Of a stretch of DNA of 64,000 nt, positions 23,433 through 64,000 are shown piece after piece. Source of the stretch: an uncultured Candidatus Saccharibacteria bacterium (GTDB taxonomy: Bacteria > Patescibacteriota > Dojkabacteria > J137). The position numbers and the translations under genes were made by a program. Positions within the stretch are counted from its first letter, which is position 1, and each line of letters opens with the position of its first letter. The DNA lies in NCBI GenBank assembly GCA_964437465.1, contig CAYTGI010000001.1, positions 5,614 to 69,613 of the forward strand. Direction: 5' to 3'. The notes beneath the pieces are model-generated. The model did not search any database and was not told the DNA's origin. It saw only the letters and a program-made list of their open reading frames with translations.

Positions 23433-23434
23433 AA

Positions 23435-24336: not shown

Positions 24337-24343
24337 CTCAATT

Positions 24344-24377
24344 TCCTCCCCCACCCCATCCTGCTAGGAGGGGAGCT
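24344..24377. repeat. GC-rich palindromic repeat unit (core CCTGCTAGGAGGGG)
   Basis: cctcccccaccccatcctgctaggaggggagc, a GC island in an AT-rich intergenic region; same family as the units at 26755 and 27241. Confidence 0.6.
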
Positions 24378-24397
24378 TATATAACAAAAAACTAAAA

Positions 24398-25390: not shown

Positions 25391-25399
25391 ATAAAAACT

Positions 25400-26725: not shown

Positions 26726-26754
26726 AGTCTATAAGATTCCAACGAAGCTAATAG

Positions 26755-26830
26755 TCTACCTCCCCTAACCCCTCCTGCTAGGAGGGGGAAGTTGAGTTTC
26801 CTCCCCTAGCAGGGGAGGACTAAGGTGGGG
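26755..26830. repeat. Cluster of GC-rich palindromic repeat units; the first 36 bp form a direct repeat with 27241-27276
   Basis: tctacctcccctaacccctcctgctaggaggggga ... cctcccctagcaggggagg ... taaggtgggg. Confidence 0.65.
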
Positions 26831-26880
26831 TAGAATGTTTTACTACACTTCTTTGTTTTACTTCCCCAATTTTTATCTTT

Positions 26881-27267
26881 ATGATTCCTTATTACAATAA
26901 AAGTAAACTGAATTTCTCCAAGAAAAAGAGGAAAGATGAAACCTATGCTGAAATGAAACTTTGGTCAGAATTAAAAGGAAAAAAATTACTGGGATATAAA
27001 TTTAGAAGACAATATGTAATAGATAAATACATAGTTGATTTTTATTGTATTGAACTAAAATTAATTATTGAGGTAGATGGGGCAAGTCATGATGAAGAAA
27101 AGTATGAGTATGATAAGAAAAGAGAAAATGAACTAAGAAGGTTAGGGAACACAGTATTAAGATTTACTGAATATGAAGTTAGGAGTGATATTGATAATGT
27201 TTTGGAAACTATTGTTTATTTAATAGAAAAGTTTGAACAATCTACCTCCCCTAACCCCTCCTGCTAG
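26881..27267 (+). CDS. DUF559-type (Vsr-like endonuclease fold) small protein
   Basis: 128 aa; YKFRRQYVIDKYIVDFYC...IEVDGASHDE...RENELRRLGNTVLRF; its last 8 codons (STSPNPSC) are encoded by the GC-rich repeat. Confidence 0.65.
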   Translation: MIPYYNKSKLNFSKKKRKDETYAEMKLWSELKGKKLLGYKFRRQYVIDKYIVDFYCIELKLIIEVDGASHDEEKYEYDKKRENELRRLGNTVLRFTEYEVRSDIDNVLETIVYLIEKFEQSTSPNPSC

Positions 27268-27395
27268 GAGGGGGACATGACTTTCATTAAATTACTCCCC
27301 TGCTAGGGAGGAAATATACTCACTTTATAAGTTCATGTTCAAATTGCTAGGAGGGGAAGCAATAATCTACCGAATACTCTCCTGCTAGAAGGGGG
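27241..27395. repeat. Cluster of four GC-rich palindromic repeat units; first 36 bp identical to 26755-26790
   Basis: cccctcctgctaggaggggg; ctcccctgctagggagg; ttgctaggagggg; ctcctgctagaaggggg. Confidence 0.65.
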
Positions 27396-27484
27396 ACGTA
27401 ATGTAGTCTAGTACTTTCTTAATAAATCCTTGTAAACTATCTCTATCCTCTTTAGAATGAAAATATATTATTAAAAATCTTCTT

Positions 27485-29911
27485 ATGGAACAGCACGTCT
27501 TAGATTGGTTTAAAAAGTACCACAGGTTAACAAATTACCTAGGAGCATCAATGCTTTATCTAAAAGATAACTTCTTTTTAGAAGAGGAATTAAAACCTGA
27601 GCACATAAAAAATAGAATTCTAGGACACTGGGGAACTGTTCCTGGGTTGAACTTTATGTACGCTGGTCTTAACTATTTAATTAAACAAACTGGACAGGAG
27701 ATGATGTTTATAGGAGGTCCTGGTCACGGAGCTCCGGCTGTTTTAGCTAATGTTTATGTAGAAGGGACACTCGAAGAATATTATCCTAACGTAGCAAGAA
27801 ATCGAGAAGGTTTTGGACAATTATTAAAACTATTTAGCTGGCCAAAAGGGTTTCCTTCTCATACTTATCCTGGAGTACCTGGATCCGTTCATGAGGGCGG
27901 AGAGTTAGGATACTCTTTAGGGACAGCCTTTGGAACAGTATTTGATAATCCACATTTAATGACAGCATGTGTAATTGGAGATGGAGAGGCTGAGACAGGT
28001 CCGTTAGCAGCTAGCTGGCATTCAAATAAATTTATAGACCCAGCAAGTACTGGTGTTGTTTTACCAATTTTACATCTAAACGGTTATAGAATTTCAGGAC
28101 CGACCATTTTTGGAACCATGGATAACGAAGAAGTTTTAAGTTACTTTAGAGGTTTAGGATATAATCCGATTTTAGTTGATCAATATAACTCAGAAGATAT
28201 TTATAACGATTACCTTCAAGCTCTTCATGATGCATACGATAGTATTCAGTATGTAAGGACTGAATGGCAAAATACTGGAAAGAAACCTAACTGGCCAATG
28301 TTAGTTGTTAGAACAATGAAAGGTTGGACTGGTCCTGAATACTTTAAAGGAAAGAAAATTGAAGATCATAATAACTCTCACGGAATTCCTTTAGAAAAAT
28401 GTAAAACAGATATGGATCAGCTAAAAGCAGTTGAAGAATGGTTAAGAAGTTATAACGTAAATGAACTGTTAAATGAAGATAAAACAATAAAAGAGGAGCT
28501 TTATGAATTTGTTCCTGAAGGAGATTTAAGAATGGGTAAGAATAAGCATGCAGTTGGCGGAAATTTGAGGAAAGAGTTAGTTCTTCCTGACTTAGATAAG
28601 TTAAGTATTAAGTTTGATAAGCCAGGATTTGTAGCTGAAAGTTCAATGGAAGTTATGGGTAAGTATTACGAAGAAGTTTTTAAAAATAATGAACAGGAAC
28701 AGAACTTTAGGATTTTTTCTCCAGATGAATCAGAATCAAACAAACTTGGAGAAATGTTTGATATTACTGGAAGAAAGTATGTTTGGCCAACAAGAGACTG
28801 CGATGAATGCATTTCACCAAATGGCCGAGTTATGGAGCTATTAAGTGAGCATGTTCTTCAAGAGTGGATGCAGGGGTATGTTCTTACTGGAAGACACGGG
28901 GTATTAATCTCTTATGAAGCATTCTTAGGAATCATTACAACAATGATTGATCAACATATAAAGTTCATAAAGATTTCAGAGGAGTTTGAATGGAGAAAGC
29001 CTGTCCCTAGTCTGAACTATGTTGCCTCAAGCACAGGCTGGAGGCAGGATCATAATGGATTCTCACACCAGAATCCAACATTGATAAATACATTACTTAC
29101 AAAACAAGCTGACTTTGTAAGTGTATATTTCCCAGCTGATGTAAATACACTTCTTGCGACCCTTGATGATTGTCTACTTAGAACTAATAATGTAAATCTA
29201 ATAATTTCAGGTAAGAGAGATTTACCTCAATGGTTGAGTATGGATGAAGCTCGTGAGCATGTTAAAAACGGAATTAGTAGATGGGACTTCGTAGGCAATG
29301 TAAAAAATGATCATGAAAATACTCCAGATGTAGTATTAGCTTCTTGCGGGGACTACCAAACTCAAGAGACAATCGCTGCAGCACAAATACTAAGAGAGGA
29401 TCTGCCTGAACTTACATTTCAATATGTAAACGTAAATGAAATTACGAGATTAGGTTTAGGAGATGAACATAATCCATTAATGACGACGCAAGATTATGAA
29501 AAATACTTCACTCATGATAGAGATGTTATTTTCAATTTTCATGGTTATCCAGATGCAATAAAGCAACTTACCTGGGGAAGAAAGATATCAGAACAGTTAG
29601 TTATTCTAGGTTATATAGAAAAGGGAACAACAACAACACCTTTTGATATGCAAGTAGTTAATAAAGCAAGTAGATATCATGTAGCAATGCAAGCAATTCT
29701 TTCTGCTGCTAGATTTAATAATGATGTTGCTGCAAGAGAGGTGGAACTAATAAAAAAGTATACCGAAATTTTAAAGAAGCATTCTGAGTATATAGTTGAG
29801 TATGGGGATGACATGCCAGAAGTTAAGGATTTTAAGTATAAGCTTGGCCAATGCAGTTTTCTAAAATTTTTGAAGGTAGATATGAGTTTGGATTTAATCC
29901 TCCAGTCCTAG
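27485..29911 (+). CDS. xfp: Xylulose-5-phosphate/fructose-6-phosphate phosphoketolase
   Basis: 808 aa; GHWGTVPGLNF and EGGELGYS signatures. Confidence 0.9.
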   Translation: MEQHVLDWFKKYHRLTNYLGASMLYLKDNFFLEEELKPEHIKNRILGHWGTVPGLNFMYAGLNYLIKQTGQEMMFIGGPGHGAPAVLANVYVEGTLEEYYPNVARNREGFGQLLKLFSWPKGFPSHTYPGVPGSVHEGGELGYSLGTAFGTVFDNPHLMTACVIGDGEAETGPLAASWHSNKFIDPASTGVVLPILHLNGYRISGPTIFGTMDNEEVLSYFRGLGYNPILVDQYNSEDIYNDYLQALHDAYDSIQYVRTEWQNTGKKPNWPMLVVRTMKGWTGPEYFKGKKIEDHNNSHGIPLEKCKTDMDQLKAVEEWLRSYNVNELLNEDKTIKEELYEFVPEGDLRMGKNKHAVGGNLRKELVLPDLDKLSIKFDKPGFVAESSMEVMGKYYEEVFKNNEQEQNFRIFSPDESESNKLGEMFDITGRKYVWPTRDCDECISPNGRVMELLSEHVLQEWMQGYVLTGRHGVLISYEAFLGIITTMIDQHIKFIKISEEFEWRKPVPSLNYVASSTGWRQDHNGFSHQNPTLINTLLTKQADFVSVYFPADVNTLLATLDDCLLRTNNVNLIISGKRDLPQWLSMDEAREHVKNGISRWDFVGNVKNDHENTPDVVLASCGDYQTQETIAAAQILREDLPELTFQYVNVNEITRLGLGDEHNPLMTTQDYEKYFTHDRDVIFNFHGYPDAIKQLTWGRKISEQLVILGYIEKGTTTTPFDMQVVNKASRYHVAMQAILSAARFNNDVAAREVELIKKYTEILKKHSEYIVEYGDDMPEVKDFKYKLGQCSFLKFLKVDMSLDLILQS

Positions 29912-33077: not shown

Positions 33078-36000
33078 TTAAAGGAATTTAGAAATAATTG
33101 TTACAGAATGCTCATCATCAATATTTAAGATTCTTTCAATTGTTTTGCTATTACTGTTAGAGCCATATTTAATTCTCACTTTTATCGCAGATTTTGAATT
33201 ATTGTTTTCGTCAAAACAGCGTTTTAACTCTTTAAGCTTTTCTTCTTCTCTTATCTTTGTTATGTCAACCTCTAATGTTTTTGGTGGAACTAATAAGTTA
33301 GCTGGTTCAATTTTATCTACAATAATTGATTTCTCATCGTCCCTTTGGTTTACTGTACCTTCAATTATAAAAGGCCTAGCTTCAGCTACTAGTTCTAAAT
33401 CATTCAACTCTTTAAATGTTTTTGGAAACATTACCGCTTGGCAAGTACTCTCTAAATCTTCAATTTTTAGAATTGCCATCTGTTCGTTTTTAGCTTTAGT
33501 TCTTACGATTTTAATATTGCTAAACATACCTAGAATTTTTACTTTCTCACCAGACTTCTTATCATTAATTTCTGAAGTTTTAGTTAACGCATCTAGCAAA
33601 GAAGCCCATGTGAAATTTTGAAGAGGGTGAGTTGAAACAAACACTCCCATTAGATCTTTCTCCCACCCAACCTTTTCCTTATCAGTAGCTGGAATAAAAG
33701 AGGGAAATATTGTTTTCTCGATATTATTAGAACCATCATGTTCTGTACCAACATTAAATAACCCAGCCTGTCCTATTTCTTCAGCTTTTTCATTTTTGCT
33801 GACCTTTTCAAAAACCTCTTGAATGATTAGTAACAATCCATTTCTATCTCCAAACTCGTCTAGAGCACCAGCTTTAATTAAACATTCTACAGTACGTTTG
33901 TTTAGGTTTTTTGTTCCAACTCGATTAACGAAATCGTCAAAATGTTTAAAACTTCCGTTTTTATTTCTTTCATTAATTATTTTTTCACATACTTTTCTAC
34001 CTACGTTTTTAATAGCTCCAAGTCCAAATCGAATTCCATCGTCACCTTCAGGATTAAAGTAAACATCAGACTCATTAATGCTTGGTGGAAGGACTTTATA
34101 GCCAAGTCTTTTTGCCTCACCAATATCAACAACTATACGGTCAGTATTTTCAAGATCGGCATGCATTAAAGCAGTCATGAACTCAAGGGGATAATTACCT
34201 TTAAGATACGCACACCAATAAGCAACAGCAGCATAACTAGAAGCGTGTGCTTTGTTAAATCCATAAGAAGCAAAAGGTTCGAGTTGCTTCCAAATCTCAC
34301 TAGCTATCTCTTCTCCATACTGAGGGTAGTTTTCGACAAAATATTTTTTAAAATCTCCCTCTTTTTGCTTAAGAATATCTAGCTGTTTTTTCTTTAAAGC
34401 ATTTCGAATGACATCTCCTTCTCCAAGAGTAAATCCACCTAGTTTCATACAGATTTGAAGAAGTTGTTCCTGATAAACTGGATAACCTAAAGTGGCCTTT
34501 AGAATTGGTTCAAGTTCAGGAATTAGGTAATCAGCCTCTTTATTACCGTTCTTAATCTTAATGTAGTCAGGGATGTAAGCCATCGGTCCAGGCCTATAAG
34601 CAGCAGCCATAAAACATATATCCCCCATTGTTGTTGGTTGTAATTCCATTAGATACTTTTGCATAGGTGGAGACTCAAATTGAAATACACCTATAGTTTC
34701 TCCGTTTCTAAAAACATCCATTGCTTTTTGATCATAGACCTCGGGTGGTTCATCTGGGTTAACGTTAATTGTCGATAGATCTATTTTTTTACCATGTCTT
34801 TTCTCAACATATAAAATGCAGTCTTTTAAAATCGTAAGCGTTCTTAGACCAAGAAAATCAAATTTCATATAATCTAATTTATCTACCCACGTTCCGTCCA
34901 TCTGAGTAACAAGAAGATTTGGATCTTTTGTATCTTTTTGATAGGCCATAAAGTCATCAATTGGTCCTGGAGTAATTAAATATCCAGCAGCGTGAACTCC
35001 TGTATGTCTATTCAAGCCTTCAATTTTTTTAACAGTTTCTCCTAGTTTTTGAAGCCTAGGATCAGCATCAACCATTGCTTTAAATTCTGGATCAGTCTCC
35101 ATCATCTTCTCAAAAGTGAATGGTTTTCCAAAAAGGACTGTAACTTTTTTTGATAGTTTATCTGCAAGAGCTAAATCAATTCCCATAACCCTAGCTACAT
35201 CTCTAATCGCAGCTTTAGTTGCTAGTTTTCCAAAAGTTATTATTCCAGCAACAGCATCCTCACCATATTTTTCCCTTGCATAATCAATTAATTCTTCTCG
35301 CCTATCGTCCTGAATATCCATATCAATATCTGGTGGAGAAGCACGTTCTAAATTCAGGAATCTTTCAAAAACAAGCCCCCATTTTATTGGATCAACATTT
35401 GTAATCTCTAGGCAATATGAAGCTAAACTTCCTGCAGCACTACCTCTAACACCAACAACAATCTCTTGTTTTCTTGCATACTGCATTAGATCTCCAACTA
35501 CAAGAAAGTAATCGTTATATCCCATCTTATCTATAACCATAAGCTCGTATTCTAGTTGTTTTGTTATATCTTCAGGTAGTTCTTTCTTAATCTTTTTTAT
35601 TGATGGAATTTCACCATTTCCACAATATTTCTTGAATGCACCTTCATAAGTCTGCTTCTCAAGCTCTTCTTTAGCAGTTGAATCTTTAGGTAGATTCCAG
35701 TAATGAGGTTGAACTCGATCTGGCTTAAGACTTATCTTTTCAATTTTTTCACTAACCTTAAGTGTTTCTTCTAAAACTTCAGGAATATCAGCAAAATCCT
35801 CTTTTAATTCTTCTGGGGTTTTGATGTAAGTTTCAACATAACCATTCATTCCGCTTGGATCATCTATCATCTTTCCATCTCGAATACAGAATAAAACTTT
35901 CTGAGTCTCTTTATCATCAGCATTTAGAAAGTGTGCGTCAGTAGTAGCAATAATAGGGATATTATATTTCTTTGAATAGTCGTAAAGCTTTTTATTAACT

Positions 36001-36629
36001 TTGACCTGTTGTTTTAATGTTTCTAATTGTTCATCTTGTTCGCCAACTGGTAATGAATTTATAAGATTCGTGTCGAGTTCATCCTCGCATCTAATTCCAT
36101 TTCTCTGAATTTCAAGATAAAAGTCGTCTTTAAATAAACCATGTAGTTCTTTTAACCACCATTCAGCTTTTTCGTATTCACCTCTAGTAATGTGCCTAGA
36201 AAGCGGTCCTGCTAGACAAGCAGAAGTACAGATTAATCCTTCCGAATGTTTTTTAAGTAAACTTAAATCAATTCTAGGTTTATAGTACATCCCCTCAAGA
36301 TGCGAACGAGTTACTAACTTCACTAGATTTCTATATCCAACGCTGTTCTTAGCAATTAGAAGTAAATGGTAATATCTAATGCCATCAACATCAGATCTTA
36401 ATGTCATATCCTTAGGGGCTAAGTACATTTCACAACCGATAATTGGCTTAACATCAAAATCTTTCGACATCTTCCAAAATTCGGGAACTCCGTATAAAAC
36501 ACCATGATCAGTTATTGCAACAGCATCCATTCCATTCTCCTTAACTTTTTCAAAAAGTTTATCAGTACGATTAAGCCCATCTAGAAGGGAATACTGTGTA
36601 TGTACATGAAGGTGAACAAAATCAGCCAT
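33078..36629 (-). CDS. dnaE: DNA polymerase III alpha subunit
   Basis: 1183 aa; PHP domain HLHVHTQYSLLDG; polymerase core and an OB-fold-containing C-terminus. Confidence 0.95.
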   Translation of the reverse strand: MADFVHLHVHTQYSLLDGLNRTDKLFEKVKENGMDAVAITDHGVLYGVPEFWKMSKDFDVKPIIGCEMYLAPKDMTLRSDVDGIRYYHLLLIAKNSVGYRNLVKLVTRSHLEGMYYKPRIDLSLLKKHSEGLICTSACLAGPLSRHITRGEYEKAEWWLKELHGLFKDDFYLEIQRNGIRCEDELDTNLINSLPVGEQDEQLETLKQQVKVNKKLYDYSKKYNIPIIATTDAHFLNADDKETQKVLFCIRDGKMIDDPSGMNGYVETYIKTPEELKEDFADIPEVLEETLKVSEKIEKISLKPDRVQPHYWNLPKDSTAKEELEKQTYEGAFKKYCGNGEIPSIKKIKKELPEDITKQLEYELMVIDKMGYNDYFLVVGDLMQYARKQEIVVGVRGSAAGSLASYCLEITNVDPIKWGLVFERFLNLERASPPDIDMDIQDDRREELIDYAREKYGEDAVAGIITFGKLATKAAIRDVARVMGIDLALADKLSKKVTVLFGKPFTFEKMMETDPEFKAMVDADPRLQKLGETVKKIEGLNRHTGVHAAGYLITPGPIDDFMAYQKDTKDPNLLVTQMDGTWVDKLDYMKFDFLGLRTLTILKDCILYVEKRHGKKIDLSTINVNPDEPPEVYDQKAMDVFRNGETIGVFQFESPPMQKYLMELQPTTMGDICFMAAAYRPGPMAYIPDYIKIKNGNKEADYLIPELEPILKATLGYPVYQEQLLQICMKLGGFTLGEGDVIRNALKKKQLDILKQKEGDFKKYFVENYPQYGEEIASEIWKQLEPFASYGFNKAHASSYAAVAYWCAYLKGNYPLEFMTALMHADLENTDRIVVDIGEAKRLGYKVLPPSINESDVYFNPEGDDGIRFGLGAIKNVGRKVCEKIINERNKNGSFKHFDDFVNRVGTKNLNKRTVECLIKAGALDEFGDRNGLLLIIQEVFEKVSKNEKAEEIGQAGLFNVGTEHDGSNNIEKTIFPSFIPATDKEKVGWEKDLMGVFVSTHPLQNFTWASLLDALTKTSEINDKKSGEKVKILGMFSNIKIVRTKAKNEQMAILKIEDLESTCQAVMFPKTFKELNDLELVAEARPFIIEGTVNQRDDEKSIIVDKIEPANLLVPPKTLEVDITKIREEEKLKELKRCFDENNNSKSAIKVRIKYGSNSNSKTIERILNIDDEHSVTIISKFL

Positions 36630-42085: not shown

Positions 42086-42514
42086 ATGTCGCTACAAATA
42101 TTAATCCCTAAAACATCAAAAAAGGTAAAACTACCATTTTTTGGGACATCAGTTAACGCTGGCTTCCCAAGTCCTGCTGATGACTTCGTAGAACGTAAGC
42201 TTGACTTGAATGAATATTTAATAAAGCATCCAGCCGCAACTTTTTTTGTTAGAGCAACAGGGGATTCAATGAAAAACATAGGGATTCATTCAGGAGATTT
42301 ACTTATTGTTGATAGATCCCTTGATGTTGTAGATGGAAAAATTGTTATAGCTGCAATTGACGGTGAATTTACTGTAAAAAGAGTAAAAAAGATTAATGGG
42401 GAGTTATTTCTTGTTCCTGAAAACGAGAACTATAAACCGATAAAGATAGATAGTGAGGATGAGTTTCAGATCTTCGGTGTTGTTAAGAATGTTATAAAGA
42501 ATTTGTTAAATTAA
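42086..42514 (+). CDS. umuD: UmuD-like S24 peptidase (LexA C-terminal domain fold, no HTH)
   Basis: ATGDSM Ser motif, a Lys in FTVKRVKK, a candidate Ala-Gly cleavage site (VNAGFP); 142 aa. Confidence 0.75.
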   Translation: MSLQILIPKTSKKVKLPFFGTSVNAGFPSPADDFVERKLDLNEYLIKHPAATFFVRATGDSMKNIGIHSGDLLIVDRSLDVVDGKIVIAAIDGEFTVKRVKKINGELFLVPENENYKPIKIDSEDEFQIFGVVKNVIKNLLN

Positions 42515-43488: not shown

Positions 43489-44766
43489 ATGAAACAAAGG
43501 GTATTTGGTTTAATAGACTGCAACAACTTCTTTGCTTCCTGCGAGCGTGTATTTGACCCTAAACTGATTAGAAAGCCTATTGCGATTCTTTCTAACAATG
43601 ATGGTTGTATTATCGCAAGATCATCGGAAGTAAAAAAAATGGGGGTGCCTATGGGTGCCCCTCTTCATGAGTGGAAAGATTTGATTGAGCGAAATCATGT
43701 AAATATTTACTCGGCTAACTTTCACCTTTATGGAGATATGTCAAATAGAGTTATGCAAATCTTAGAGAAGTTTTCTCCTGATGTTCAAGTTTATTCAATA
43801 GATGAGGCGTTTATTGACTTAACTCACGTTAAAACAGGAGATCTTTATGAATATGGCAAAAAGATTAGGGATACAATTATGAAATGGACAGGACTTCCGG
43901 TTTCTGTTGGAATAGCTTCTACTAAAACACTGTCTAAAATTGCTGTTGAACATGCTAAGAAAAATGAAGAAGATCAAGGTTGTTATGTTTTAGATTCTGA
44001 AGAAAAGATTAATAACTATTTAGACACACTTCCAGTTCAAGAAATTTGGGGAATAGGGTACAGGCTTTGTATGAGACTAAACGGACAGGGAGTATACACT
44101 GCTCTTGATTTTAAAAAGCTAGATGAGCGAAAAGTTAGACAAGACATGAGTGTGACTGTTCAAAGAACTTTAAATGAATTAAATGGAATTCATTGTATCG
44201 AAGGAGTTGAAAATAAGGAAACTAAGAAACAGATAATTAGTTCTAGATCTTTTGGAAGAAGGGTCACTTCTTTGAGTGAACTAAAAGAGTCGGTTGCAAG
44301 TTACGTAGCGAGAGCTTCTGAAAAGCTAAGAAGACAGGGTTCTGTCGCAAGTTTTATAGGAGTTAGTGTAAGAACAAATAAATTTGCGAAAGATGAAAAA
44401 CACTACCATAATTCATACTATATGAGCCTAGAAACACCAACAGATTATTTAGCAGATCTAACTAAAGCTGCACACTTTTGTTTAGAACAGATTTATAGAA
44501 AAGGAGTTGTCTATAAAAAATCAATGGTACAATTAGGAGGATTAGTCCCAAGAGATAGTCAAAAAATTAATATGTTTGATCCTGAGTATGATACTGAGAA
44601 AAATAAGATAGTTATGGGGGCTTTTGATCAAATTAATAAAGAGTGGGGAAGTGGAACTATTAAAACTGCCGCGATGGGGAATAAGCAAACATGGAAAGCT
44701 AAAAGCAATCTAAGAAGTCCAAGGTATACGACTAGTTGGGAGGAGATAGTGAAAATTAAGAATTAA
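43489..44766 (+). CDS. Y-family DNA polymerase (UmuC/DinB)
   Basis: IDCNNFFASCERVFDP and SIDEAFIDLT motifs. Confidence 0.9.
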   Translation: MKQRVFGLIDCNNFFASCERVFDPKLIRKPIAILSNNDGCIIARSSEVKKMGVPMGAPLHEWKDLIERNHVNIYSANFHLYGDMSNRVMQILEKFSPDVQVYSIDEAFIDLTHVKTGDLYEYGKKIRDTIMKWTGLPVSVGIASTKTLSKIAVEHAKKNEEDQGCYVLDSEEKINNYLDTLPVQEIWGIGYRLCMRLNGQGVYTALDFKKLDERKVRQDMSVTVQRTLNELNGIHCIEGVENKETKKQIISSRSFGRRVTSLSELKESVASYVARASEKLRRQGSVASFIGVSVRTNKFAKDEKHYHNSYYMSLETPTDYLADLTKAAHFCLEQIYRKGVVYKKSMVQLGGLVPRDSQKINMFDPEYDTEKNKIVMGAFDQINKEWGSGTIKTAAMGNKQTWKAKSNLRSPRYTTSWEEIVKIKN

Positions 44767-55504: not shown

Positions 55505-55691
55505 GGAGAGATGGCCGCTAAAGAGATTACATCAGAGCGAAGCGATGATAGTAAGATCTTTGTCCTGCGAAGCTAGTAAAGTAGGAAGTGGTTTAAGGTG
55601 CATCGCCTCTAACATGCTCCCGATTATATCGGGGCGCAGGTTCGCCACAGACATGTGTCGTGTCGCCATGATGAATATCATGGTGAATCCT
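55505..55691 (+). other. tRNA-Ser-like element with a 70-nt insertion in the D-loop, a 41-nt insertion in the T-loop and no 3' acceptor strand (pseudo-tRNA or intron-bearing tRNA remnant)
   Basis: Carries the same blocks as tRNA-Ser at 55956, namely GGAGAGATGGCCG, GTGGTTTAAGGTGCATCG, GCAGGTTCG and AATCCT. The anticodon/variable region is 30 nt long, the same as in the intact gene, but its sequence differs. Confidence 0.45.
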
Positions 55692-55700
55692 ATAACAACA

Positions 55701-55954
55701 ATGTACTATATTTAGCTACTAAGACAAAGAATAAGCAAATCTACACTGGTTATACTTCTAATTTAAGAAGGAGAGTAAAAGAACATAAATCTGTCTAAGT
55801 AAAGTTTACAAGTAAAAGATTACCAGTTGAACTTATTCATTACTAAGCCTATCTACTAGAGACAGATGCAAGAAGAAGAGAAAAATATCTCAAATCAACA
55901 GAAGGAAAGAAGATGCTAAAATTACAAATAAGAGACTTACTCCAAGAAATTTGA
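55701..55954 (+). pseudogene. Decayed small GIY-YIG nuclease gene (about 84 codons spread over three frames)
   Basis: Frames read MYYI / VLYLATKTKNKQIYTGYTSNLRRRVKEHKSV* / VKFTSKRLPVELIHY* / DARRREKYLKSTEGKKMLKLQIRDLLQEI*. Together these match the GIY-YIG core (YxYIL...IYxGxTxNLxxRLxEH, RxPxxLVY) and C-terminus; ends 2 nt before tRNA-Ser. Confidence 0.55.
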
Positions 55955-55955
55955 A

Positions 55956-56042
55956 GGAGAGGTGGCCGAGTGGTTTAAGGCGCATCGTTGGAAACGATGT
56001 TTATGTTTATTCATAACGCAGGTTCGAATCCTGTCCTCTCCG
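55956..56042 (+). tRNA. tRNA-Ser (anticodon GGA), class II with a long variable arm
   Basis: Acceptor GGAGAGG/CCTCTCC, anticodon stem CATCG/CGATG with loop TT-GGA-AA, variable-arm hairpin and T-loop TTCGAAT. Confidence 0.85.
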
Positions 56043-56274: not shown

Positions 56275-57603
56275 ATGTTTGGATTAATAGGATTTTGGTT
56301 GTTTCTTAACTTTCATAGAGATAGTATTTTTCCGCTCAGCCAATCTTCTAGCCAAATTTTGATTGCTATTTATTCTGCTTTTGGATTCTTATTGTTACTA
56401 TTTTTTTTCGTAATCTCTAGGAACTCAACATTAAATTTTGATATATCTAAAAAGTATCAAACGATTTTATTACAAAGTTTTCTTTGGTTAAATTTTTTAA
56501 TTCTTGAATTTTCTATTTACAGATTATGGCAAGCGGAGAGTGAACTGATTCATACTGACAAGTTTTATATTGTCTCTGTAATTCTATTTATTTTAACAAT
56601 ATTATCCTCTATAGTAGTTTCTAATACATCAAGGCTTGGAAGGGTCCGAACAATATATTCTTTTCTATTTTTGGCTTCATTAATGAGCATTTCTATAATG
56701 TATCTAGTACCCGCGTCCGCTAAGCTCGGAGATTTAATTCCTATCATTAATGAAATGATCAGCTCTTTATTTAACGGTGAAAATATTTATCAATATTACT
56801 TGCTAGATAATGGAGTAGCTACTCAAGCTGTTCGGCAGCCTGGCAATATCTTATTCTATATACCATTTCAACTATTAGGTATTGATATAAGGTTTGCAAA
56901 TATATTTTATTTCTCACTAACAATATTTTTATTAGTTAATATTTACCAAAAAGAGATTCAACATAATTTTGTTGGTTACTTTAGTATACTTTTATTAATT
57001 TTCTTCCCATATAGAATTTTTAGAACAGATCTATACGATGTACCATATTGGTTTATATTTGTTCTATTTATATATTTTTTTAAAAGAAAAAAAGATTTAA
57101 TAGCTCCTATAGTCTGGGGTTTCAGTATTTTTACTCAGGTTTGGAGCTGGATTTTCACACCAATACTTTTTATTTACTTATATAAAAAAAGAGGAATTAA
57201 AAATACAGCAAGATTCATAGCTATTTCAGGGATTACAGCTTTAGTATTATTCCTACCGTTTGTATTTAATAATATAGATAATTACTACGAGCATGTTTTT
57301 GGTTTTTACAATAGCTCAAGAGAAGCAGGAATAGAATTTGGTTCTAGCATCCACTTAAGTCAAGTCATACAGTTTTTATTAGATTCAAGCATTTTCCCTT
57401 TTCTACAGTTGTTTCAAATGCTAACAATTTTCATTATATTTTTGTTCTTAAAAAAAAATTTACCGAACCTTTTATTTAGTCTAGGGTTAGCTTTTTTTGC
57501 ATTTATGAGTCTAAATACTCATACTTGGCCATATATGTACTTGCTCATTTTCTTGGCTATGATTTTTATTATATTTGAAGAAGGAAGGAGATCTAACACT
57601 TAA
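56275..57603 (+). CDS. Polytopic membrane protein (about 12 TM helices), GT-C-like glycosyltransferase or DUF2029-like candidate
   Basis: 442 aa dominated by hydrophobic helices; identification is by topology only. Confidence 0.4.
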   Translation: MFGLIGFWLFLNFHRDSIFPLSQSSSQILIAIYSAFGFLLLLFFFVISRNSTLNFDISKKYQTILLQSFLWLNFLILEFSIYRLWQAESELIHTDKFYIVSVILFILTILSSIVVSNTSRLGRVRTIYSFLFLASLMSISIMYLVPASAKLGDLIPIINEMISSLFNGENIYQYYLLDNGVATQAVRQPGNILFYIPFQLLGIDIRFANIFYFSLTIFLLVNIYQKEIQHNFVGYFSILLLIFFPYRIFRTDLYDVPYWFIFVLFIYFFKRKKDLIAPIVWGFSIFTQVWSWIFTPILFIYLYKKRGIKNTARFIAISGITALVLFLPFVFNNIDNYYEHVFGFYNSSREAGIEFGSSIHLSQVIQFLLDSSIFPFLQLFQMLTIFIIFLFLKKNLPNLLFSLGLAFFAFMSLNTHTWPYMYLLIFLAMIFIIFEEGRRSNT

Positions 57604-57726: not shown

Positions 57727-57755
57727 TTGACTTCGTAATTTCACATTCATATACT
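57727..57755 (+). promoter_or_regulatory. Sigma70-type promoter for the pilin gene
   Basis: TTGACT, a 17-nt spacer, then TATACT, about 40 nt upstream of the pilin ATG. Confidence 0.5.
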
Positions 57756-57796: not shown

Positions 57797-58288
57797 ATGA
57801 ATAACCATGAGGAAAATAACAACAAGGAAGGATTCACATTGATTGAGATCCTAGTTGTAGTTGCTTTGATTGCGATCTTAGCAACAATTACATTCATCGC
57901 TATTAATCCAGCGAGAAACTTTAGAGATACAAGAAATGCACAGAGAAGTTCAGATGTGTTGCAGATTTTAAATGCTGTTACTCAGTACACTTCAGAGCAA
58001 GGAAACGATCTTGACTCTCTTGCTGTAGCTTCAACTACTGTTTGGGGAACAGGATTAACTGCACTTCCACTATGTTCAGCAACTCCTGCGCCAATCGGAA
58101 CCACAGCTGATGTTTCTGTAGATATCTCTGCTGTATTAGTTCCTGATTACATTGTAGGTATTCCATCTGATCCTTCTGTAACAACTGCACCAGGAAATAC
58201 TGGATATACAATCTGTGAAGAAGCTAGTGGTAGAGTAACTGTTGCAGCACCAAATGCTGAATCAACAACTATTTCTGTTTCTAGATAA
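57797..58288 (+). CDS. Type IV pilin (prepilin with class III signal peptide)
   Basis: Leader MNNHEENNNKEG, then FTLIEILVVVALIAILA (G|F cleavage site, Glu at +5). Confidence 0.85.
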   Translation: MNNHEENNNKEGFTLIEILVVVALIAILATITFIAINPARNFRDTRNAQRSSDVLQILNAVTQYTSEQGNDLDSLAVASTTVWGTGLTALPLCSATPAPIGTTADVSVDISAVLVPDYIVGIPSDPSVTTAPGNTGYTICEEASGRVTVAAPNAESTTISVSR

Positions 58289-58362
58289 TGTTGCAAATTA
58301 GCTCCTATTTTTTTAAACTGAAAAGTAGGAGTTTATTTTAATTAATATATAAAATTACTGTT

Positions 58363-58827
58363 ATGGAAAATAACAAACAAACGAAAAAAGGATTCACATT
58401 GATTGAGATCCTAGTTGTAGTTGCTTTGATTGCGATCTTAGCAACAATTACATTCATCGCTATTAATCCAGCGAGAAACTTTAGAGATACAAGAAATGCA
58501 CAGAGAAGTTCAGATGTGTTGCAGATTTTAAATGCTGTTACTCAGTATACTTCTCAACAGGGAAATAGTTTAGATGGATTAGCAACTGCTATCGGGGTTG
58601 TTGGCGGAAGCTTTACAGACTGTGGTTCTGGAACTGATGACATTGGAACTGGTGATGCAGATCTAGCTGCAGCGTTAGTACCTGACTTTATAGTTGGGAT
58701 ACCTCAGGATCCAGACGGAGCAAGTACAGCAGTAGATACATTATATGATATCTGCGAAGAAGCAAGCGGTAGAGTTACAATTTCTGCACCTTCTGCTGAA
58801 TCTACAACAATTACTGTTTCTAGATAA
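58363..58827 (+). CDS. Type IV pilin, tandem paralogue
   Basis: Leader MENNKQTKKG, then FTLIEIL...; about 160 bp (58389-58547) are nucleotide-identical to 57829-57987. Confidence 0.85.
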   Translation: MENNKQTKKGFTLIEILVVVALIAILATITFIAINPARNFRDTRNAQRSSDVLQILNAVTQYTSQQGNSLDGLATAIGVVGGSFTDCGSGTDDIGTGDADLAAALVPDFIVGIPQDPDGASTAVDTLYDICEEASGRVTISAPSAESTTITVSR

Positions 58828-58848
58828 GGAATTAAAATAAAAATAAAA

Positions 58849-58875
58849 GGGCCTCAGAATTGAGGTCTTTTTTTA
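58849..58875 (+). terminator. Rho-independent terminator after the second pilin gene
   Basis: Hairpin ggcctca-gaat-tgaggtc followed by a T7 tract. Confidence 0.6.
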
Positions 58876-58893: not shown

Positions 58894-60156
58894 ATGGCAA
58901 AGAAGTCTTTAAACACATCAATAGATGGGAACAATACTAATGAATCCACACTTTCAGCAGGAAAACAATCCACAGAAGAAAAAGGTATAACAGGTATGCT
59001 TAATGATATTGTATTAACAGCTCTTAATAAAAGAGCTTCAGATATTCATATCGAACCTCACGAGAACTCTGTTGTTGTAAGATACAGAATCGATGGAATT
59101 TTAAAAGACATATACACAATTGAAAAAAAATATGAGGAAACTTTAGTCTTTAAGATTAAAGTTAACGCTAAGCTGAGAACAGACGAACACTTTGCACCTC
59201 AAGATGGAAGAATATCTTTTAATTTTGAAGATAAGTTAGATACTAGAATATCAATTCTTCCAACAGCAAAAGGAGAAAAAGTAGTAATTAGGTTGTTAAC
59301 TCAGAAAGGAAGATCTTTTACTCTTAAAGATCTTGGATTTAAAGAAAAAGAGTATGAGATTGTTCAGAAAGCATTTAAAAAACCATATGGATCTATTTTT
59401 GCTTCTGGTCCGACTGGATCTGGTAAAACTACAACACTTTATTCAATTCTGCAGACTTTAAATTCTCGAGATATAAATATTACTACTGTTGAAGATCCTG
59501 TAGAGTATGAAATTGACGGAGTAAACCATGTTCAAGTAAATAAAAAAGCTGGTTTAACATTTAGTAATGGTCTTAGGTCTATTTTAAGACAGGATCCCAA
59601 TGTAGTTATGATTGGAGAGATTCGTGATTCAGAGACTGCAAAAATTGCAACAAACGCAGCAATGACTGGACACTTAGTATTATCAACTATTCACACTAAC
59701 GATGCAGTTACTACGATTCCAAGGCTTATTGATATGGGTGTAGAACCTTATCTTGTAGCTACAACTGTTAACGTAGTTATTGCTCAAAGACTTGCAAGAA
59801 AAATTGATGAACAGTACAGGTCAGAAACTAAATTATCACAGGAAGAATATGACGAACTTAAAATCTATAGACCTGACCTTGCTTCATACTTAAAGGTTGG
59901 TGAAACATTATATGTTCCTAACGTTCCAGAAGGATCAGTAGATAGTGGTTATAAAGGGAGAATTGGTTTGTATGAAGTATTAGAAATAAATGAGCCAATA
60001 AGAAAAATAATAATGGCTGGAGCTGACACAGACCAAATCTTTACACAGGCTAGAAAGCAAGGATTAAAGTTAATTGTAGAGGACGGTGTCGAGAAGTTAA
60101 GAGCGGGTGTTATTTCATTATCAGAGCTTGTAAGAGTTACAGCGTTAAAAGAATAA
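58894..60156 (+). CDS. pilB: Type IV pilus assembly ATPase PilB/GspE
   Basis: Walker A GPTGSGKTTT, Walker B VMIGEIRD, and a GspE N-terminal domain. Confidence 0.9.
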   Translation: MAKKSLNTSIDGNNTNESTLSAGKQSTEEKGITGMLNDIVLTALNKRASDIHIEPHENSVVVRYRIDGILKDIYTIEKKYEETLVFKIKVNAKLRTDEHFAPQDGRISFNFEDKLDTRISILPTAKGEKVVIRLLTQKGRSFTLKDLGFKEKEYEIVQKAFKKPYGSIFASGPTGSGKTTTLYSILQTLNSRDINITTVEDPVEYEIDGVNHVQVNKKAGLTFSNGLRSILRQDPNVVMIGEIRDSETAKIATNAAMTGHLVLSTIHTNDAVTTIPRLIDMGVEPYLVATTVNVVIAQRLARKIDEQYRSETKLSQEEYDELKIYRPDLASYLKVGETLYVPNVPEGSVDSGYKGRIGLYEVLEINEPIRKIIMAGADTDQIFTQARKQGLKLIVEDGVEKLRAGVISLSELVRVTALKE

Positions 60157-60157: not shown

Positions 60158-61444
60158 ATGGAACAACCAAGTTTTTCACAAACCATGAAAACTGATCTTG
60201 ATGCTTCAGTTAATAATCAACCCCAACCTCAACAGCAGATTCAAGAACCACAACAAGTACAAGCACAACCTCAACAACAACCTGAAGCTCCTGTTCAACA
60301 AGAACAATCATCAGCTATTGCTCCTTCAAATGGGGACTTGGCAGTTCCAAAAAGACGTAGAAAGAAAAAAAAGAAGAAAAAAGGAGGGCAAGTTTATTTT
60401 TCTGGAATATCTAAGCTTATAATTCTAGTTTCAATTAGAAATCTTTACTTAATGCTCAAATCTGGGTTAGCGCTTAATGAGGCAGTAAGAACATTAACTG
60501 AACAAACTCCAGATGAAAGGCTAGCAAGAATATATGATGAGATAGCGAATAAAATAGACGAGGGAATGACTTTAGCAGAATCAATGAGACTTTATCCAAA
60601 AGCATTTTCAGACATCATAGTTTCAGTTGTTTCAGTTGGTGAACAGGGAGGAACTTTGGAGAAAAATCTTTTGTTTCTCGCTGATTATTTAAAAAAGGCT
60701 CATACATTAGGTAAGAAGATCCAAGGAGCATTAATCTATCCAGCAATTGTGTTTTTAATGACATTTGTTGAAATGCTTGGAGTAATTTTCTTGATTTTAC
60801 CTAAGCTTGAAGAACTGTTCTCTTCATTTGATGATGTACCATCAATGACAAAAACTATTTTAGCTGGGTCTCAGTTTATTAGAGAAAATGCAATTTTCCT
60901 AGCTGGAGGCTTAGTAGTATTTATATTTTTATTTACAATGTTTCTGAGGACAAAAGCTGGAAAAAGATTTAAGGATATAGTCAGCATAAATATTCCGGTT
61001 ATAAAAAAATTAACCAAGTTTAATTTACTCGCCTCATTTTCCAGAACGTTAAGTATTTTATTAGAAACAGGTATTCCTTTGGTAAATGCTCTTGATATTG
61101 CAACAAGTACTGTTAGTAATACTATTTATAGAAATATCCTTGAAAAAGTAGCTGCTGATGTAAAAAGTGGTAGAAGTTTAGCTGATTCACTTTCTGATTA
61201 TGAAAAATACTTTCCACCAACGTTTGTAAAACTTATTGAAGTTGGTGAAAGCACGGGTACTTTAGAAGAGAATCTAGCATATTTATATGATTATCATGCT
61301 GAAGAGGTTGAGGAGATGTCCAATAATTTATCTACTTTGCTGGAACCATTGTTACTGATTGTGATTGGTGGAATGATTGGGCTTCTTGCAATTATTATCG
61401 TTGGACCTATATACCAATTAACTGGAAGTATTAACACAGTATGA
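60158..61444 (+). CDS. pilC: Type IV pilus platform protein PilC (two T2SS-F domains) with a Q/P-rich N-terminal extension and a poly-Lys tract
   Basis: Two GspF-like repeats each followed by TM helices; N-terminal QPQPQQQIQEPQQVQAQPQQQ and KRRRKKKKKKKG. Confidence 0.85.
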   Translation: MEQPSFSQTMKTDLDASVNNQPQPQQQIQEPQQVQAQPQQQPEAPVQQEQSSAIAPSNGDLAVPKRRRKKKKKKKGGQVYFSGISKLIILVSIRNLYLMLKSGLALNEAVRTLTEQTPDERLARIYDEIANKIDEGMTLAESMRLYPKAFSDIIVSVVSVGEQGGTLEKNLLFLADYLKKAHTLGKKIQGALIYPAIVFLMTFVEMLGVIFLILPKLEELFSSFDDVPSMTKTILAGSQFIRENAIFLAGGLVVFIFLFTMFLRTKAGKRFKDIVSINIPVIKKLTKFNLLASFSRTLSILLETGIPLVNALDIATSTVSNTIYRNILEKVAADVKSGRSLADSLSDYEKYFPPTFVKLIEVGESTGTLEENLAYLYDYHAEEVEEMSNNLSTLLEPLLLIVIGGMIGLLAIIIVGPIYQLTGSINTV

Positions 61445-61884
61445 AAAAGGCATATACTTTACTGGAATTACTTCTTGTTTTAACTCTTTTTTCATCAGTA
61501 TCAGCAATTGTAGTTCCCTTTACAATTCGACAAATTTCACAAGGTAATGTAGAGAGTGAGGCAGATAAGGTTAGGTCAGCAATATTTCTAACTCAACAAA
61601 ACGCATATACAGGTAGAAATTCCTCAGATTATGGTATTAAATTTAATAGTGATAGTTACGAAATATATGAAGGAGCCAGTTATGCTGGAGCATTGAACAT
61701 TGATGTAGAAAATTTGCCGTCCTCTGTACAGTTTACAGCAGTTAATCTTGGTGATCTTGGAGATGAGGTTCATTTTAGCTTAGGATCAGTCATACCTTCT
61801 ACAGATGGAGTTTTAACAATATCAGACGGGACAAGTACGAATACAATAACTATAACTAGTCAAGGATCAATTTTAATTCAATGA
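61441..61884 (+). CDS. Minor pilin / pseudopilin-like protein
   Basis: N-terminal MKKAYTLLELLLVLTLF with a Glu at +5 relative to the presumed cleavage site. Confidence 0.55.
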   Translation: MKKAYTLLELLLVLTLFSSVSAIVVPFTIRQISQGNVESEADKVRSAIFLTQQNAYTGRNSSDYGIKFNSDSYEIYEGASYAGALNIDVENLPSSVQFTAVNLGDLGDEVHFSLGSVIPSTDGVLTISDGTSTNTITITSQGSILIQ

Positions 61885-63809
61885 TAGATACAAAGGTTAA
61901 AAAAGCATTTTCACTGGTTGAAATTCTACTAGCTTTAGGAATCTTCCTAATTGTTTTTGCTACTGTTGGTTTATTTGCCGTTGATTCAATTAGAAATGCT
62001 AGAAGTAATAGGGAGAGGTTTTATGCATCAATTGGAATAAACGAAATGAGCAAAGCCTTAGAAATTATGGCTCGTGAAAATTGGGCAGAGATTTTCAATA
62101 GTCCAACAGGAACTCAACTCTATCCTCAATTTAGTAGCGGTGAATACACTCTTGAAGTAGGGACTTATGATAATGGTGGAGTAACGATATATCTTGAATT
62201 AGATGATGTTTATAGAGATGGAGCAACTGGTAATATTGTAATCACTGGAGGAGTTTTGGATCCAAGATCTAAAGAGATTAATTTTACAGCGCAGTGGACA
62301 GACGTAGTTGGTGCAATTCAGACTGTTAACTCAACTGGATATATTAATGATTGGCATACATTTACATGGGAACAAACTTTAGAAAGTGAGTTTTTAAATG
62401 GAAATACAACTGACTCTTTTGTAGTTAATAATGATGATGGAGAAATTCAGCTTGCCTCACAGGTTTATGCAGATTGGTGTTCTCCTGAGTTAGGAGTTAA
62501 CACATTTGATTTACCTGGAAATGGAATATCGAAATCTATCTCTGCAATACCTGGAGTTGCTCATGTTGGGACTAATCAAGGTTCTGGCATTTCATATTCT
62601 AATATTTTAATTTCTGATGATGATCCCCCACTAATAACAATTCCTGATACATTCACTGGCTATAACGTTGTAAGTGTGCATGGAGACGAAAACTATGCTT
62701 ATCTAGCTACAACAAATGATAGTAAAGAGGTTGTTATTTTAGACATTTCAAGTACCCCTTTTACAGAGGTTGGTCACGTAAATCTATCTGGAAGTAGAGA
62801 TGCAGTAAGTATCTTTGTTAATAACGATATTGGATATGTAACTCAACATGAGACTTTATATACTTTTGATTTATCTTCTAAGACTGGAAGTAGACCTATT
62901 ATTGATTCTCATAGTCTTTTTAGAAGAGGATCTTTTATGCATGTTAGGGATGATTATGCGTATATTTTAATTGCTGGAGCTGTTGAAGAACTTGAAATTA
63001 TAGACCTTTCAAATCCAAATAATCTTCAAACTGTTGGTTTTGCTAACGTTAATGCCGGAGTAGCAGTTAAAGCTATAACAGTAAACGAGGCACAGACAAG
63101 AGCATATATCGGGGCTAATGCCTCAAGTCAATACAACGAAATTTTTGTTTTAGATATTGAGGAAAAAACAGGAGAAAGGCCTATAATTGGAAGTTTTGAC
63201 ACTAATGGGATGAATGTTACAGATTTAATTGTAGTACAAGATGATACAATTGTAATTTCTGTAGGTACAAATTCTCAAGAATATCAGGTTGTTGATATTT
63301 CTGATGAGGCAAATCCTACATATTGTGGAGGATTAGAATTTAATACAGGGTTAAATGGGATTGCTGGTGCAGTATTTTCAGATACAGGTAATAGATATGT
63401 GTATGTTGTTTCAAATGATCCAAGTGAGGAACTGAAAGTTATTAGAGGTGGCTTAGCAGGATCAGGAGGATTTATCGGTGAGGGTTATGTACCTGAAGGA
63501 ACTTTTGATTCTGAGATTTTTGATACAGGGGTTTCAAATCCTTATTATTATGTTTTAAGCTGGGATGAGACTGTTCCTGGGACTACAAATGTCAGATTTC
63601 AACTTAGGTCTAGTGATGATCCTGGAATGAGCGGGGCAACATGGGTAGGTCCTGATGGAACTAGTGGAACATATTTTGAGATGCCTGAAGGAGATCCTAT
63701 TCCTGGAGTGTTACAAAACAATAGATATTTACAGTACAGAGCATACCTACAATCTGATGCTGCGAATACACCCTTTTTAAATTCTGTAATAATAAACTAT
63801 CAAAGATGA
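61881..63809 (+). CDS. Pilin-like protein with a C-terminal LVIVD-repeat beta-propeller (candidate pilus-associated adhesin)
   Basis: N-terminal KKAFSLVEILLALGIF (Glu at +5); four or more repeats of the form ..YAY(L/I)A.....(L/V).(I/V)(L/I)D(I/L)S(D/N)P. Confidence 0.6.
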   Translation: MIDTKVKKAFSLVEILLALGIFLIVFATVGLFAVDSIRNARSNRERFYASIGINEMSKALEIMARENWAEIFNSPTGTQLYPQFSSGEYTLEVGTYDNGGVTIYLELDDVYRDGATGNIVITGGVLDPRSKEINFTAQWTDVVGAIQTVNSTGYINDWHTFTWEQTLESEFLNGNTTDSFVVNNDDGEIQLASQVYADWCSPELGVNTFDLPGNGISKSISAIPGVAHVGTNQGSGISYSNILISDDDPPLITIPDTFTGYNVVSVHGDENYAYLATTNDSKEVVILDISSTPFTEVGHVNLSGSRDAVSIFVNNDIGYVTQHETLYTFDLSSKTGSRPIIDSHSLFRRGSFMHVRDDYAYILIAGAVEELEIIDLSNPNNLQTVGFANVNAGVAVKAITVNEAQTRAYIGANASSQYNEIFVLDIEEKTGERPIIGSFDTNGMNVTDLIVVQDDTIVISVGTNSQEYQVVDISDEANPTYCGGLEFNTGLNGIAGAVFSDTGNRYVYVVSNDPSEELKVIRGGLAGSGGFIGEGYVPEGTFDSEIFDTGVSNPYYYVLSWDETVPGTTNVRFQLRSSDDPGMSGATWVGPDGTSGTYFEMPEGDPIPGVLQNNRYLQYRAYLQSDAANTPFLNSVIINYQR

Positions 63810-64000
63810 TGAAAGGATATAGAAAAGCAATTACATTAATTGAGACTGTGATTTACTTGGCGTTAATTGGGTCTGCATTTTTTTTAATAGTTAATTTTGG
63901 ATTTACAATAGCGGACTTTAATAGAGATGCTGGCGTGAATAATGAGATTCAACAAAGTTTAGTTTTTTTGAATCAGCATTTTGAAGAACATATTGAACTT
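63806..64000 (+). CDS. Minor pilin-like protein (partial; continues past the window end)
   Basis: MMKGYRKAITLIETVIYLALIGSAFF with a Glu at +5; start overlaps the previous stop (ATGA). Confidence 0.5.
   Translation, partial: MMKGYRKAITLIETVIYLALIGSAFFLIVNFGFTIADFNRDAGVNNEIQQSLVFLNQHFEEHIEL

Follow-up and report, generated by a model that had tools for sequence, protein, structure and literature searches.

A predicted LVIVD beta-propeller pilin in a compact type IV filament operon of an uncultured member of the Patescibacteria

The pilin-type protein of 642 residues described here is encoded in a 64,000-nucleotide stretch of DNA (hereafter, the window) from an uncultured Candidatus Saccharibacteria bacterium, which is placed in Patescibacteriota, Dojkabacteria, J137 by GTDB (assembly GCA_964437465.1, contig CAYTGI010000001.1, positions 5,614 to 69,613 of the forward strand). 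The window has a G+C content of about 32%. From 57.8 kb to its end, an unbroken row of genes on the + strand encodes two major pilins, PilB, PilC, and three minor pilins, the second of which is the 642-residue protein. This region (57.8-64.0 kb) is probably a compact Com-pilus-like type IV filament operon, in which a modular pilin at the I position presents a predicted beta-propeller at the pilus tip and binds an extracellular ligand, a reading that is favored at somewhat better than even confidence. Modular minor pilins, the combination of a pilin domain with LVIVD repeats, and a functional analogue (PilX2) in a related phylum are already known. What is new is the placement at the I position of a conserved four-gene set, the model with seven blades and a C-terminal beta-sandwich, the size of the family, the conservation of the propeller, and the lack of homology to PilX2.

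Modules, predicted fold and family of the 642-residue protein

The gene (61881..63809, + strand) encodes a protein whose N-terminus, MIDTKVKKA/FSLVEILLALGIFLIVFATVG, is a class III signal peptide with a short hydrophilic leader, about 21 hydrophobic residues, and a glutamate at position +5 (MIDTKVKKA/FSLVE; slashes mark predicted cleavage sites). The leader comprises residues 1-9 (61881..61907), and both the sequence and the family alignment place the predicted cleavage after Ala9. The protein was modelled by AlphaFold2 with 66 homologs, and the full-length model reached a mean predicted local distance difference test score (pLDDT) of 90.8. Residues 10-157 (61908..62351) are predicted to form a pilin module, in which a 56-residue alpha1 helix (11-66) and an antiparallel beta-sheet (80-156) produce the 'lollipop' fold of pilins. 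This is followed by residues 158-199 (62352..62477), with short predicted strands at 161-195 and an invariant W199-C200 at the boundary to the next module. The seven-bladed LVIVD propeller then occupies residues 200-527 (62478..63461), and its 28 predicted strands, found between residues 206 and 523, make up seven four-stranded blades. The chain ends with a C-terminal beta-sandwich (residues 528-642 and the stop codon, 63462..63809), which is predicted to have strands at 534-641 with pLDDT above 90, contains a conserved WVGPDGT..TYF motif, and gave no Pfam match.

When residues 1-200 were modelled alone, the pilin module was kept, whereas residues ~161-200 fell to a pLDDT of 44-52, compared to 81-95 in the full-length model. 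Because this confidence is lost in the truncated model, residues 158-199 probably pack on the C-terminal part of the protein.

A preliminary description of the window, made from the sequence alone, had suggested a pilin N-terminus fused to a beta-propeller with four or more LVIVD repeats. The fusion was borne out by the confident model of a seven-bladed propeller on a pilin-type module. The repeats themselves were also found, but their number had to be revised, as seven blades are predicted and about six of them show the hydrophobic-x-hydrophobic-x-D repeat. Likewise, the assignment to LVIVD (PF08309) held in a hidden Markov model (HMM) search, with 31.4 bits against a gathering cut-off of 20.2 (E 1.2e-07). 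LVIVD repeats were predicted to form a beta-propeller when the family was described (PMC2447325), and the AlphaFold2 model of the 642-residue protein bears this out. Two features were absent from the preliminary description, namely the C-terminal beta-sandwich and two canonical G/FTLIE major pilin genes upstream of pilB. Searches of the 642-residue protein for other propeller families revealed no PilY1-family match at E<=1 and no RCC1 match. A sequence search of the PDB with the family profiles gave matches confined to the N-terminal helix of pilins, and a Foldseek search of the N-terminal model against the PDB gave nothing significant.

The protein belongs to a large family. Word-sharing full-length homologs numbered 238, nearly all of them 630-690 residues long, and they align end to end at 32-57% identity. 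Those homologs that carry a name all come from Patescibacteria, mostly from Candidatus Dojkabacteria but also from Levybacteria, Gottesmanbacteria, and Saccharimonadia. An exhaustive profile search returned 2,573 clusters (50% identity) at E<=1e-30. Family statistics on residues and domains were taken from a 66-member alignment, in which 65 members have Glu at +5, 60 match LVIVD, and 30 match PF07963 (N_methyl) at E<=0.01; neither an RCC1 nor a PilY1 domain was found in any of the 66 (PilY1 at E<=0.01). Position -1 is occupied by Gly in 42 members, Ala in 18, and Ser in three. The earlier view that Ala at -1 is atypical was therefore not upheld by the family, nor by the published record: by definition, the last residue of a class III signal peptide is 'Gly or Ala', and the five ComG pilins of Streptococcus sanguinis all have Ala at -1 and are cleaved by ComC (PMC7212644, PMC10790768).

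Conservation within the family is highest in the propeller, with a mean identity to the window protein of 42%, compared to 23-36% in the pilin module. The top-scoring conserved 12-mers also fall in the propeller blades. Cys200 and Cys482, the sole cysteines of the 642-residue protein, are invariant in the alignment. The propeller is acidic, with a net charge of -27 in this protein and a family mean of -16. Longer variants of 950-2,000 residues (P0121, P0191, P0198, P0241, P0245, and P0252) were found to carry two to about six tandem propellers. In these multi-propeller variants the pilin N-terminus is preserved, and 17 of the 19 compared also retain the C-terminal sandwich, sometimes in duplicate. 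Judging from these sequences, the propeller head appears to be expandable.

Operon layout and conserved gene order

The preliminary description had also reported three consecutive, translationally coupled genes with class III signals after pilB and pilC, with Ala at -1 and Glu at +5, and this was confirmed by the open reading frames (ORFs) and their overlaps. Minor pilin 1 (61441..61884, + strand) is an H-like protein of 147 residues with the N-terminus MKKA/YTLLE. It is followed by the 642-residue gene and by minor pilin 3 (63806..64000, + strand; MMKGYRKA/ITLIE), of which the first 65 codons are present before the gene runs off the end of the window. The three junctions between pilC, minor pilin 1, the 642-residue gene, and minor pilin 3 are all 4-nt ATGA overlaps. 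Minor pilin 1 matches the NCBIfam models ComGD (3.6e-09) and GspH (4.9e-06) and passes the cut-off of TIGR02532 with 20.1 bits, the only one of the three to do so; N_methyl from Pfam stays under threshold for all three. Orthologs of minor pilin 1 were found at the matching position in relatives (4.7e-17 to L002), one of which weakly matches PF12019 GspH, and minor pilin 3 is orthologous to a gene of 161-184 residues at the matching position (7.8e-06 to L002). In a six-frame scan of the whole window, a class III motif expression gave seven matches, and the signature was found at the start of an ORF only in the five pilin genes. No further pilus gene was detected by Pfam among the other window ORFs of at least 120 residues plus one of 97 residues.

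Comparison with related loci revealed that this arrangement is conserved. The loci comprise a Dojkabacteria genome with two related contigs (L001-L003), two Logan contigs (L004 and L075), two loci whose proteins are named Saccharimonadia (L005) and Levybacteria (L006), and a 1.1-Mb NCBI contig (L076). In seven related loci from six lineages, the large gene comes after pilB, pilC, and the gene for an H-like pilin of ~150 residues. The common order is a major pilin (in some cases), T2SSE, T2SSF, a pilin of ~150 residues, the gene of ~640 residues, a pilin of ~165 residues, and a gene of ~82-140 residues. In the six loci (five lineages) where the contig continues, the large gene comes second in a set of four minor pilin genes; only the upstream part is visible in L075, the nearest relative. 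Four pilin genes thus accompany the assembly machinery in L001-L006 and L076, and three of them are present in the window before its end. Moreover, Glu5 is absent from the product of the fourth gene in each of the four loci read, with T, I, I, and T at +5 in L002, L004, L005, and L006, respectively.

The H, I, J, and K minor pilins share one operon, Glu5 is missing from the last of them, and together they build a complex at the tip which primes assembly (PMC10790768). Because the gene order and the Glu5-less fourth gene match this signature, the 642-residue protein would be the I-position (second) core minor pilin, the tip complex itself being a prediction. Its close known counterparts are then the 'I' pilins GspI, ComGE, and XcpV of the H-J-I-K tip complex. 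Weak sequence and fold matches of the 642-residue protein to ComGE, GspI, XcpV, and EpsI agree with the I position, although they do not prove it. From the related loci, it is inferred that the genome described here also encodes the fourth minor pilin and a peptidase.

The presence of a prepilin peptidase, a point raised in the preliminary description, was established for some relatives. An A24 peptidase (PF01478, 41.9 bits against a cut-off of 26.5) adjoins the minor-pilin set in Dojkabacteria-type relatives. It is encoded in the same operon directly after the set in L001-L003 and beside the set on the opposite strand in L076. The window ends at 64000, before that position, and no A24 prepilin peptidase gene was found elsewhere in its 64 kb. 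The peptidase of L001-L003 (L002:12808-13395) is only 195 residues long; PF01478 is the only domain on record for it, and no N-terminal methyltransferase domain was detected. The Dojkabacteria pilins may therefore undergo cleavage without N-methylation. The peptidase in L076 (11115-11873) has 252 residues. In L005 (10881-11645) and L006 (10804-11466), a conserved gene of 220-254 residues without a family match follows the fourth minor pilin, at the place of the Dojkabacteria peptidase. A TM7x-like locus has a 365-residue ORF at the peptidase position (L071:1087-2184), which is presumably PilD, judging from its position and a GDVKLG motif in its translation.

Upstream of the minor pilins, the operon starts with two tandem major pilin genes on the + strand. 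Major pilin 1 (57797..58288; 163 residues, leader ...NKEG/FTLIE, Cys 93 and Cys 140) exceeds the cut-offs of both N_methyl (1.6e-08) and TIGR02532 (30.9 bits), and it is the ortholog of the pilin that relatives encode upstream of pilB (58% identity to that of L002, 1e-34). Major pilin 2 (58363..58827; 154 residues, leader ...TKKG/FTLIE) shares 108 identical residues with it. Outside the leader, the two are near-identical over ~65 aligned positions at the start and ~45 residues at the end, and the middle is divergent, which could correspond to antigenic or functional variation of the pilus shaft. The tandem pair also occurs in L075. Together, the invariant Cys pair of the 642-residue protein and the Cys pairs of the major pilins would fit an extracytoplasmic protein.

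A sigma-70-like promoter match, TTGACT-17-TATACT, was found at 57727..57755 (+ strand), about 40 nt upstream of major pilin 1, and terminator-like hairpins with T tails lie directly 3' of major pilin 1 (58300..58333, + strand) and of major pilin 2 (58845..58872, + strand). A promoter before the first pilin and a hairpin after each major pilin would be the usual layout for producing major pilin in excess; all three elements are consensus matches only, and promoter-like matches in the region are no more numerous than expected from shuffled sequence.

The assembly machinery follows directly. The pilB gene (58894..60156, + strand) encodes a PilB/ComGA-type extension ATPase of 420 residues (PF00437, 2.3e-118). 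PilB is short in the window and in Dojkabacteria-type loci (420-467 residues) and lacks the MshEN N-terminal domain (PF05157), while PilB of the Saccharimonadia- and Levybacteria-named loci has 558-600 residues and includes MshEN (L005:4670-6472; L006:4786-6462). The pilC gene (60158..61444, + strand) encodes a PilC/ComGB-type platform protein of 428 residues, matched in two stretches by PF00482 (1.2e-51). Its N-terminus (60158-60430) is a low-complexity extension of about 90 residues, which is Q/P-rich with poly-Lys and ends in KRRRKKKKKKKGG; PilC of relatives is shorter, at 348-410 residues. Immediately before the pilin genes, at 56275-57603, lies a gene for a multi-pass membrane protein of 442 residues without a Pfam match. 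The upstream neighbors in L005 and L006 include PMT/PMT_2 and other glycosyltransferases, and it is speculative that the 442-residue protein is an envelope or pilin glycosyltransferase.

Proposed role of the propeller head and its alternatives

The preliminary description had suggested a tip-presented adhesin for host attachment, or DNA uptake, and such roles are inferred from synteny and analogy. In the mechanism proposed here, the prepilins would insert in the membrane via their hydrophobic N-terminal helices, and the A24 peptidase would cut the leaders after Ala-1, removing four residues from minor pilin 1, eight from minor pilin 3, and nine from the 642-residue protein. The four minor pilins would form a priming complex on PilC, capped by the small Glu5-less fourth pilin. 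Polymerization of the major pilin by PilB beneath this complex would then bring the ~55-kDa propeller/sandwich head to the distal tip. There, the head would recognize a conserved ligand outside the cell, for which a glycan or protein on the surface of a partner cell is the most likely candidate.

Modular pilins, in which a functional module is grafted onto a pilin module, are an established concept, and the grafted modules can be adhesive (PMC8179133). Dataset S1 of Raynaud et al. (PNAS 2021) lists about 30 proteins in seven architectures with IPR012902 followed by one to 13 copies of IPR013211, including a Candidatus Falkowbacteria protein with 12 copies (PMC8179133). IPR013211 is the LVIVD repeat (PMC10210494). 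The pilin+LVIVD architecture was thus already catalogued, because these proteins have a domain architecture equal to that of the 642-residue protein. However, the census is a catalogue only, in which the motif is 'of unknown function' and neither structure, genomic position, nor family size is given. In the literature, a link between LVIVD and pilins was found only in this dataset. The PilB and PilC pilins of S. sanguinis provide a further likeness, since each combines a small pilin module with a bulky module (vWA in PilB, lectin in PilC) that is presented on the pilus of a monoderm. They differ in their passenger domains, share no sequence similarity with the 642-residue protein, and are experimentally proven adhesins. 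Another beta-propeller at the pilus tip is that of PilY1/PilC in Pseudomonas, Neisseria, and Myxococcus, which is held there by the four core minor pilins and acts in adhesion and assembly priming. PilY1 is not itself a pilin, however, and its propeller family (IPR008707) was not detected in the 642-residue protein, in which the propeller is fused to the pilin.

Within the Patescibacteria, the nearest parallel is PilX2 of Nanosynbacter lyticus TM7x, which, like the 642-residue protein, is a propeller minor pilin with its gene among those of other minor pilins (Grossman et al., ISME J 2025; PMC12206443 / PMC11623550). PilX2 has a seven-bladed propeller and was proposed to be a tip adhesin; its deletion reduces host binding from ~10.6% to 4.6% of host cells (PMC11623550). 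TM7x-type PilX1/PilX2 loci (L071 and L079) were retrieved via published primer sequences. The PilX2-type gene (L079:2917-4647) encodes an RCC1 propeller (PF00415, 9.1e-49) and no LVIVD, the reverse of the 642-residue protein. Moreover, PilX2 lacks Glu5 (G/YSLVL), is encoded by the fourth, K-position gene, and has no C-terminal sandwich, whereas the 642-residue protein has Glu5, the I position, and the sandwich. Homology between the two was rejected, with a BLASTP E of 0.28 and a probability of 2% in hhalign against the family profile, and on sequence comparison they are best regarded as analogous, not homologous. Orthology to TM7x PilX1 (L071:4206-5348) was also rejected (BLASTP E 0.085 over 42 residues); PilX1, the jelly-roll pilin belonging to the essential type IV pilus T4P-1, is, unlike the 642-residue protein, the fourth, Glu5-less pilin of its locus. 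Because the LVIVD pilin at the I position and the RCC1 pilin at the K position are unrelated, the sequences indicate that pili in Patescibacteria acquired a propeller on at least two separate occasions, with different carrier pilins and different propeller families.

Several points weigh against a tip-presented binding head. A propeller that is the most conserved part of the protein is unexpected for a host-specific adhesin, and it may mean that the ligand is conserved or that the propeller has a part in structure or assembly. The pilin HMMs score under their cut-offs for the 642-residue protein (PF07963, 18.0 against 21.2 bits; TIGR02532, 13.5 against 16.3 bits). Processing, incorporation into a filament, and binding are not seen from the window and are all predicted, and neither the fourth pilin nor the peptidase falls within the window or within L075, whose contig stops at the large gene.

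One alternative is that the locus encodes a Com-type competence pilus or a short pseudopilus for DNA uptake, with the large pilin capturing DNA or aiding passage through the wall or S-layer instead of serving cell-cell adhesion. Because no retraction ATPase and no PilMNO are present, the composition of the locus resembles a minimal Com pilus: it holds pilins, ATPase, platform, and peptidase only, and PilT, PilM, PilN, and PilO were found neither in the window nor in the Dojkabacteria loci. Further, the best NCBIfam matches of the minor pilins are ComGD (3.6e-09), ComGE, ComGF, and ComGG, and Ala-1 is the rule in streptococcal Com pilins. Bacteria that belong to the candidate phyla radiation (CPR) rely on scavenged nucleotides, which is in keeping with such a function. 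The likeness to the Com pilus (ComGA-GG and ComC) is limited to this minimal gene content, however, as the scores fall far under the ComG equivalog cut-offs (ComGD, 37.2 against 70 bits; ComGE, 16.5 against 49). The major pilins, with 154-163 residues and a Cys pair, are not ComGC-like either (15-17 against 75 bits). Unlike known DNA-binding pilins, the propeller is strongly acidic, as are the other modules, and direct DNA binding by the propeller is disfavored by its net charge of -27. In TM7x, T4P-2, the pilus with testable pilin mutants, made no contribution to competence. A DNA-uptake filament is therefore considered unlikely here.

A second alternative holds that the propeller/sandwich head is mainly structural. 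Instead of binding an external ligand, it would serve the tip complex as a conserved cap or as a plug for priming, comparable to PilY1, which primes pilus assembly in Myxococcus, or it would open a path through the wall. The concentration of conservation in the propeller, whose blades bear the top conserved 12-mers, would be expected in that case. So would the end-to-end conservation across Dojkabacteria, Levybacteria, Gottesmanbacteria, and Saccharimonadia, which presumably have different partners, and the fixed position of the gene within the core minor-pilin set. Nevertheless, family variants that keep the pilin N-terminus and, in nearly all cases, the sandwich have anywhere from one to about six propellers, which is more like a module for display or avidity. 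Known I-type minor pilins do without such a domain, and the modular pilins studied to date are adhesins. A chiefly structural head is accordingly also improbable, to much the same degree as DNA uptake.

The 642-residue protein could also lie outside any extended pilus, with the class III signal peptide serving only for export and for anchoring the propeller protein in the membrane or at the surface. Archaeal sugar-binding proteins bear pilin-type signal peptides, and many different surface proteins of Patescibacteria have pilin-like N-termini; the N_methyl score under threshold, the very large passenger (~55 kDa), and the varied passenger arrangements among family variants are consistent with this. 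It is nonetheless very unlikely, since the gene is translationally coupled within the minor-pilin set after pilB and pilC at every locus examined, Glu5, which is needed for contacts between filament subunits, is present in 65 of the 66 family members, and a full pilin head (alpha1 and beta-sheet) is predicted beyond a mere transmembrane helix.

The tip-presented binding head thus stays the preferred reading, and it could have a wider form. An LVIVD-propeller pilin might be near-universal at the I position of the core tip complex in Dojkabacteria, Microgenomates, and some Saccharimonadia and act as a general 'docking head' of CPR pili, a tentative and rather doubtful idea at present. If it were true, one conserved ligand or essential assembly step would be common to episymbionts with very different hosts, and the origin of this docking head would be separate from that of the RCC1 propeller at the K position in TM7x.

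Other features of the window and significance of the family

Other parts of the window were found to contain features of separate interest. At 55655-56042, a short ORF ending in ...YTGYTSNLRRRVKEHKSV adjoins an 87-nt tRNA (55956-56042) and overlapping small ORFs. By eye, the ORF resembles a GIY-YIG-type fragment, and the region may be the remnant of a mobile element or homing endonuclease. Three genes within 12 kb of each other (33078-36629, 42086-42514, and 43489-44766) encode an S24 peptidase resembling LexA, a polymerase of the Y family (IMS, IMS_C, DUF4113), and a DnaE-type polymerase III alpha subunit, and they may make up a set for SOS response or mutagenesis in a reduced genome. Between 39121 and 41339 on the - strand, four consecutive ORFs (216, 148, 183, and 208 residues), three overlapping and the fourth abutting, showed neither a Pfam match nor a pilin motif. 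A contiguous sugar-phosphate cluster at 20050-29911 encodes G6PD, 6PGD, transaldolase, a split transketolase, PGI, and phosphoketolase (XFP), with a DUF559 endonuclease-like gene inserted at 26881-27267.

The ultrasmall Patescibacteria spend their lives fixed to other microbes, and among the organelles by which they might attach, type IV pili have the best support. To our knowledge, only the pili of Saccharibacteria have been studied genetically, and we know of no genetically tractable member of the Dojkabacteria or Microgenomates. A recombinant head comprising residues 158-642 would be a tractable reagent for glycan and protein binding screens. The current picture of type IV pili is unchanged by the finding. 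With about 2,570 clusters, the LVIVD-pilin family is a widespread candidate for the pilus binding head in Dojkabacteria and Microgenomates, and its conserved propeller predicts a conserved ligand or role.

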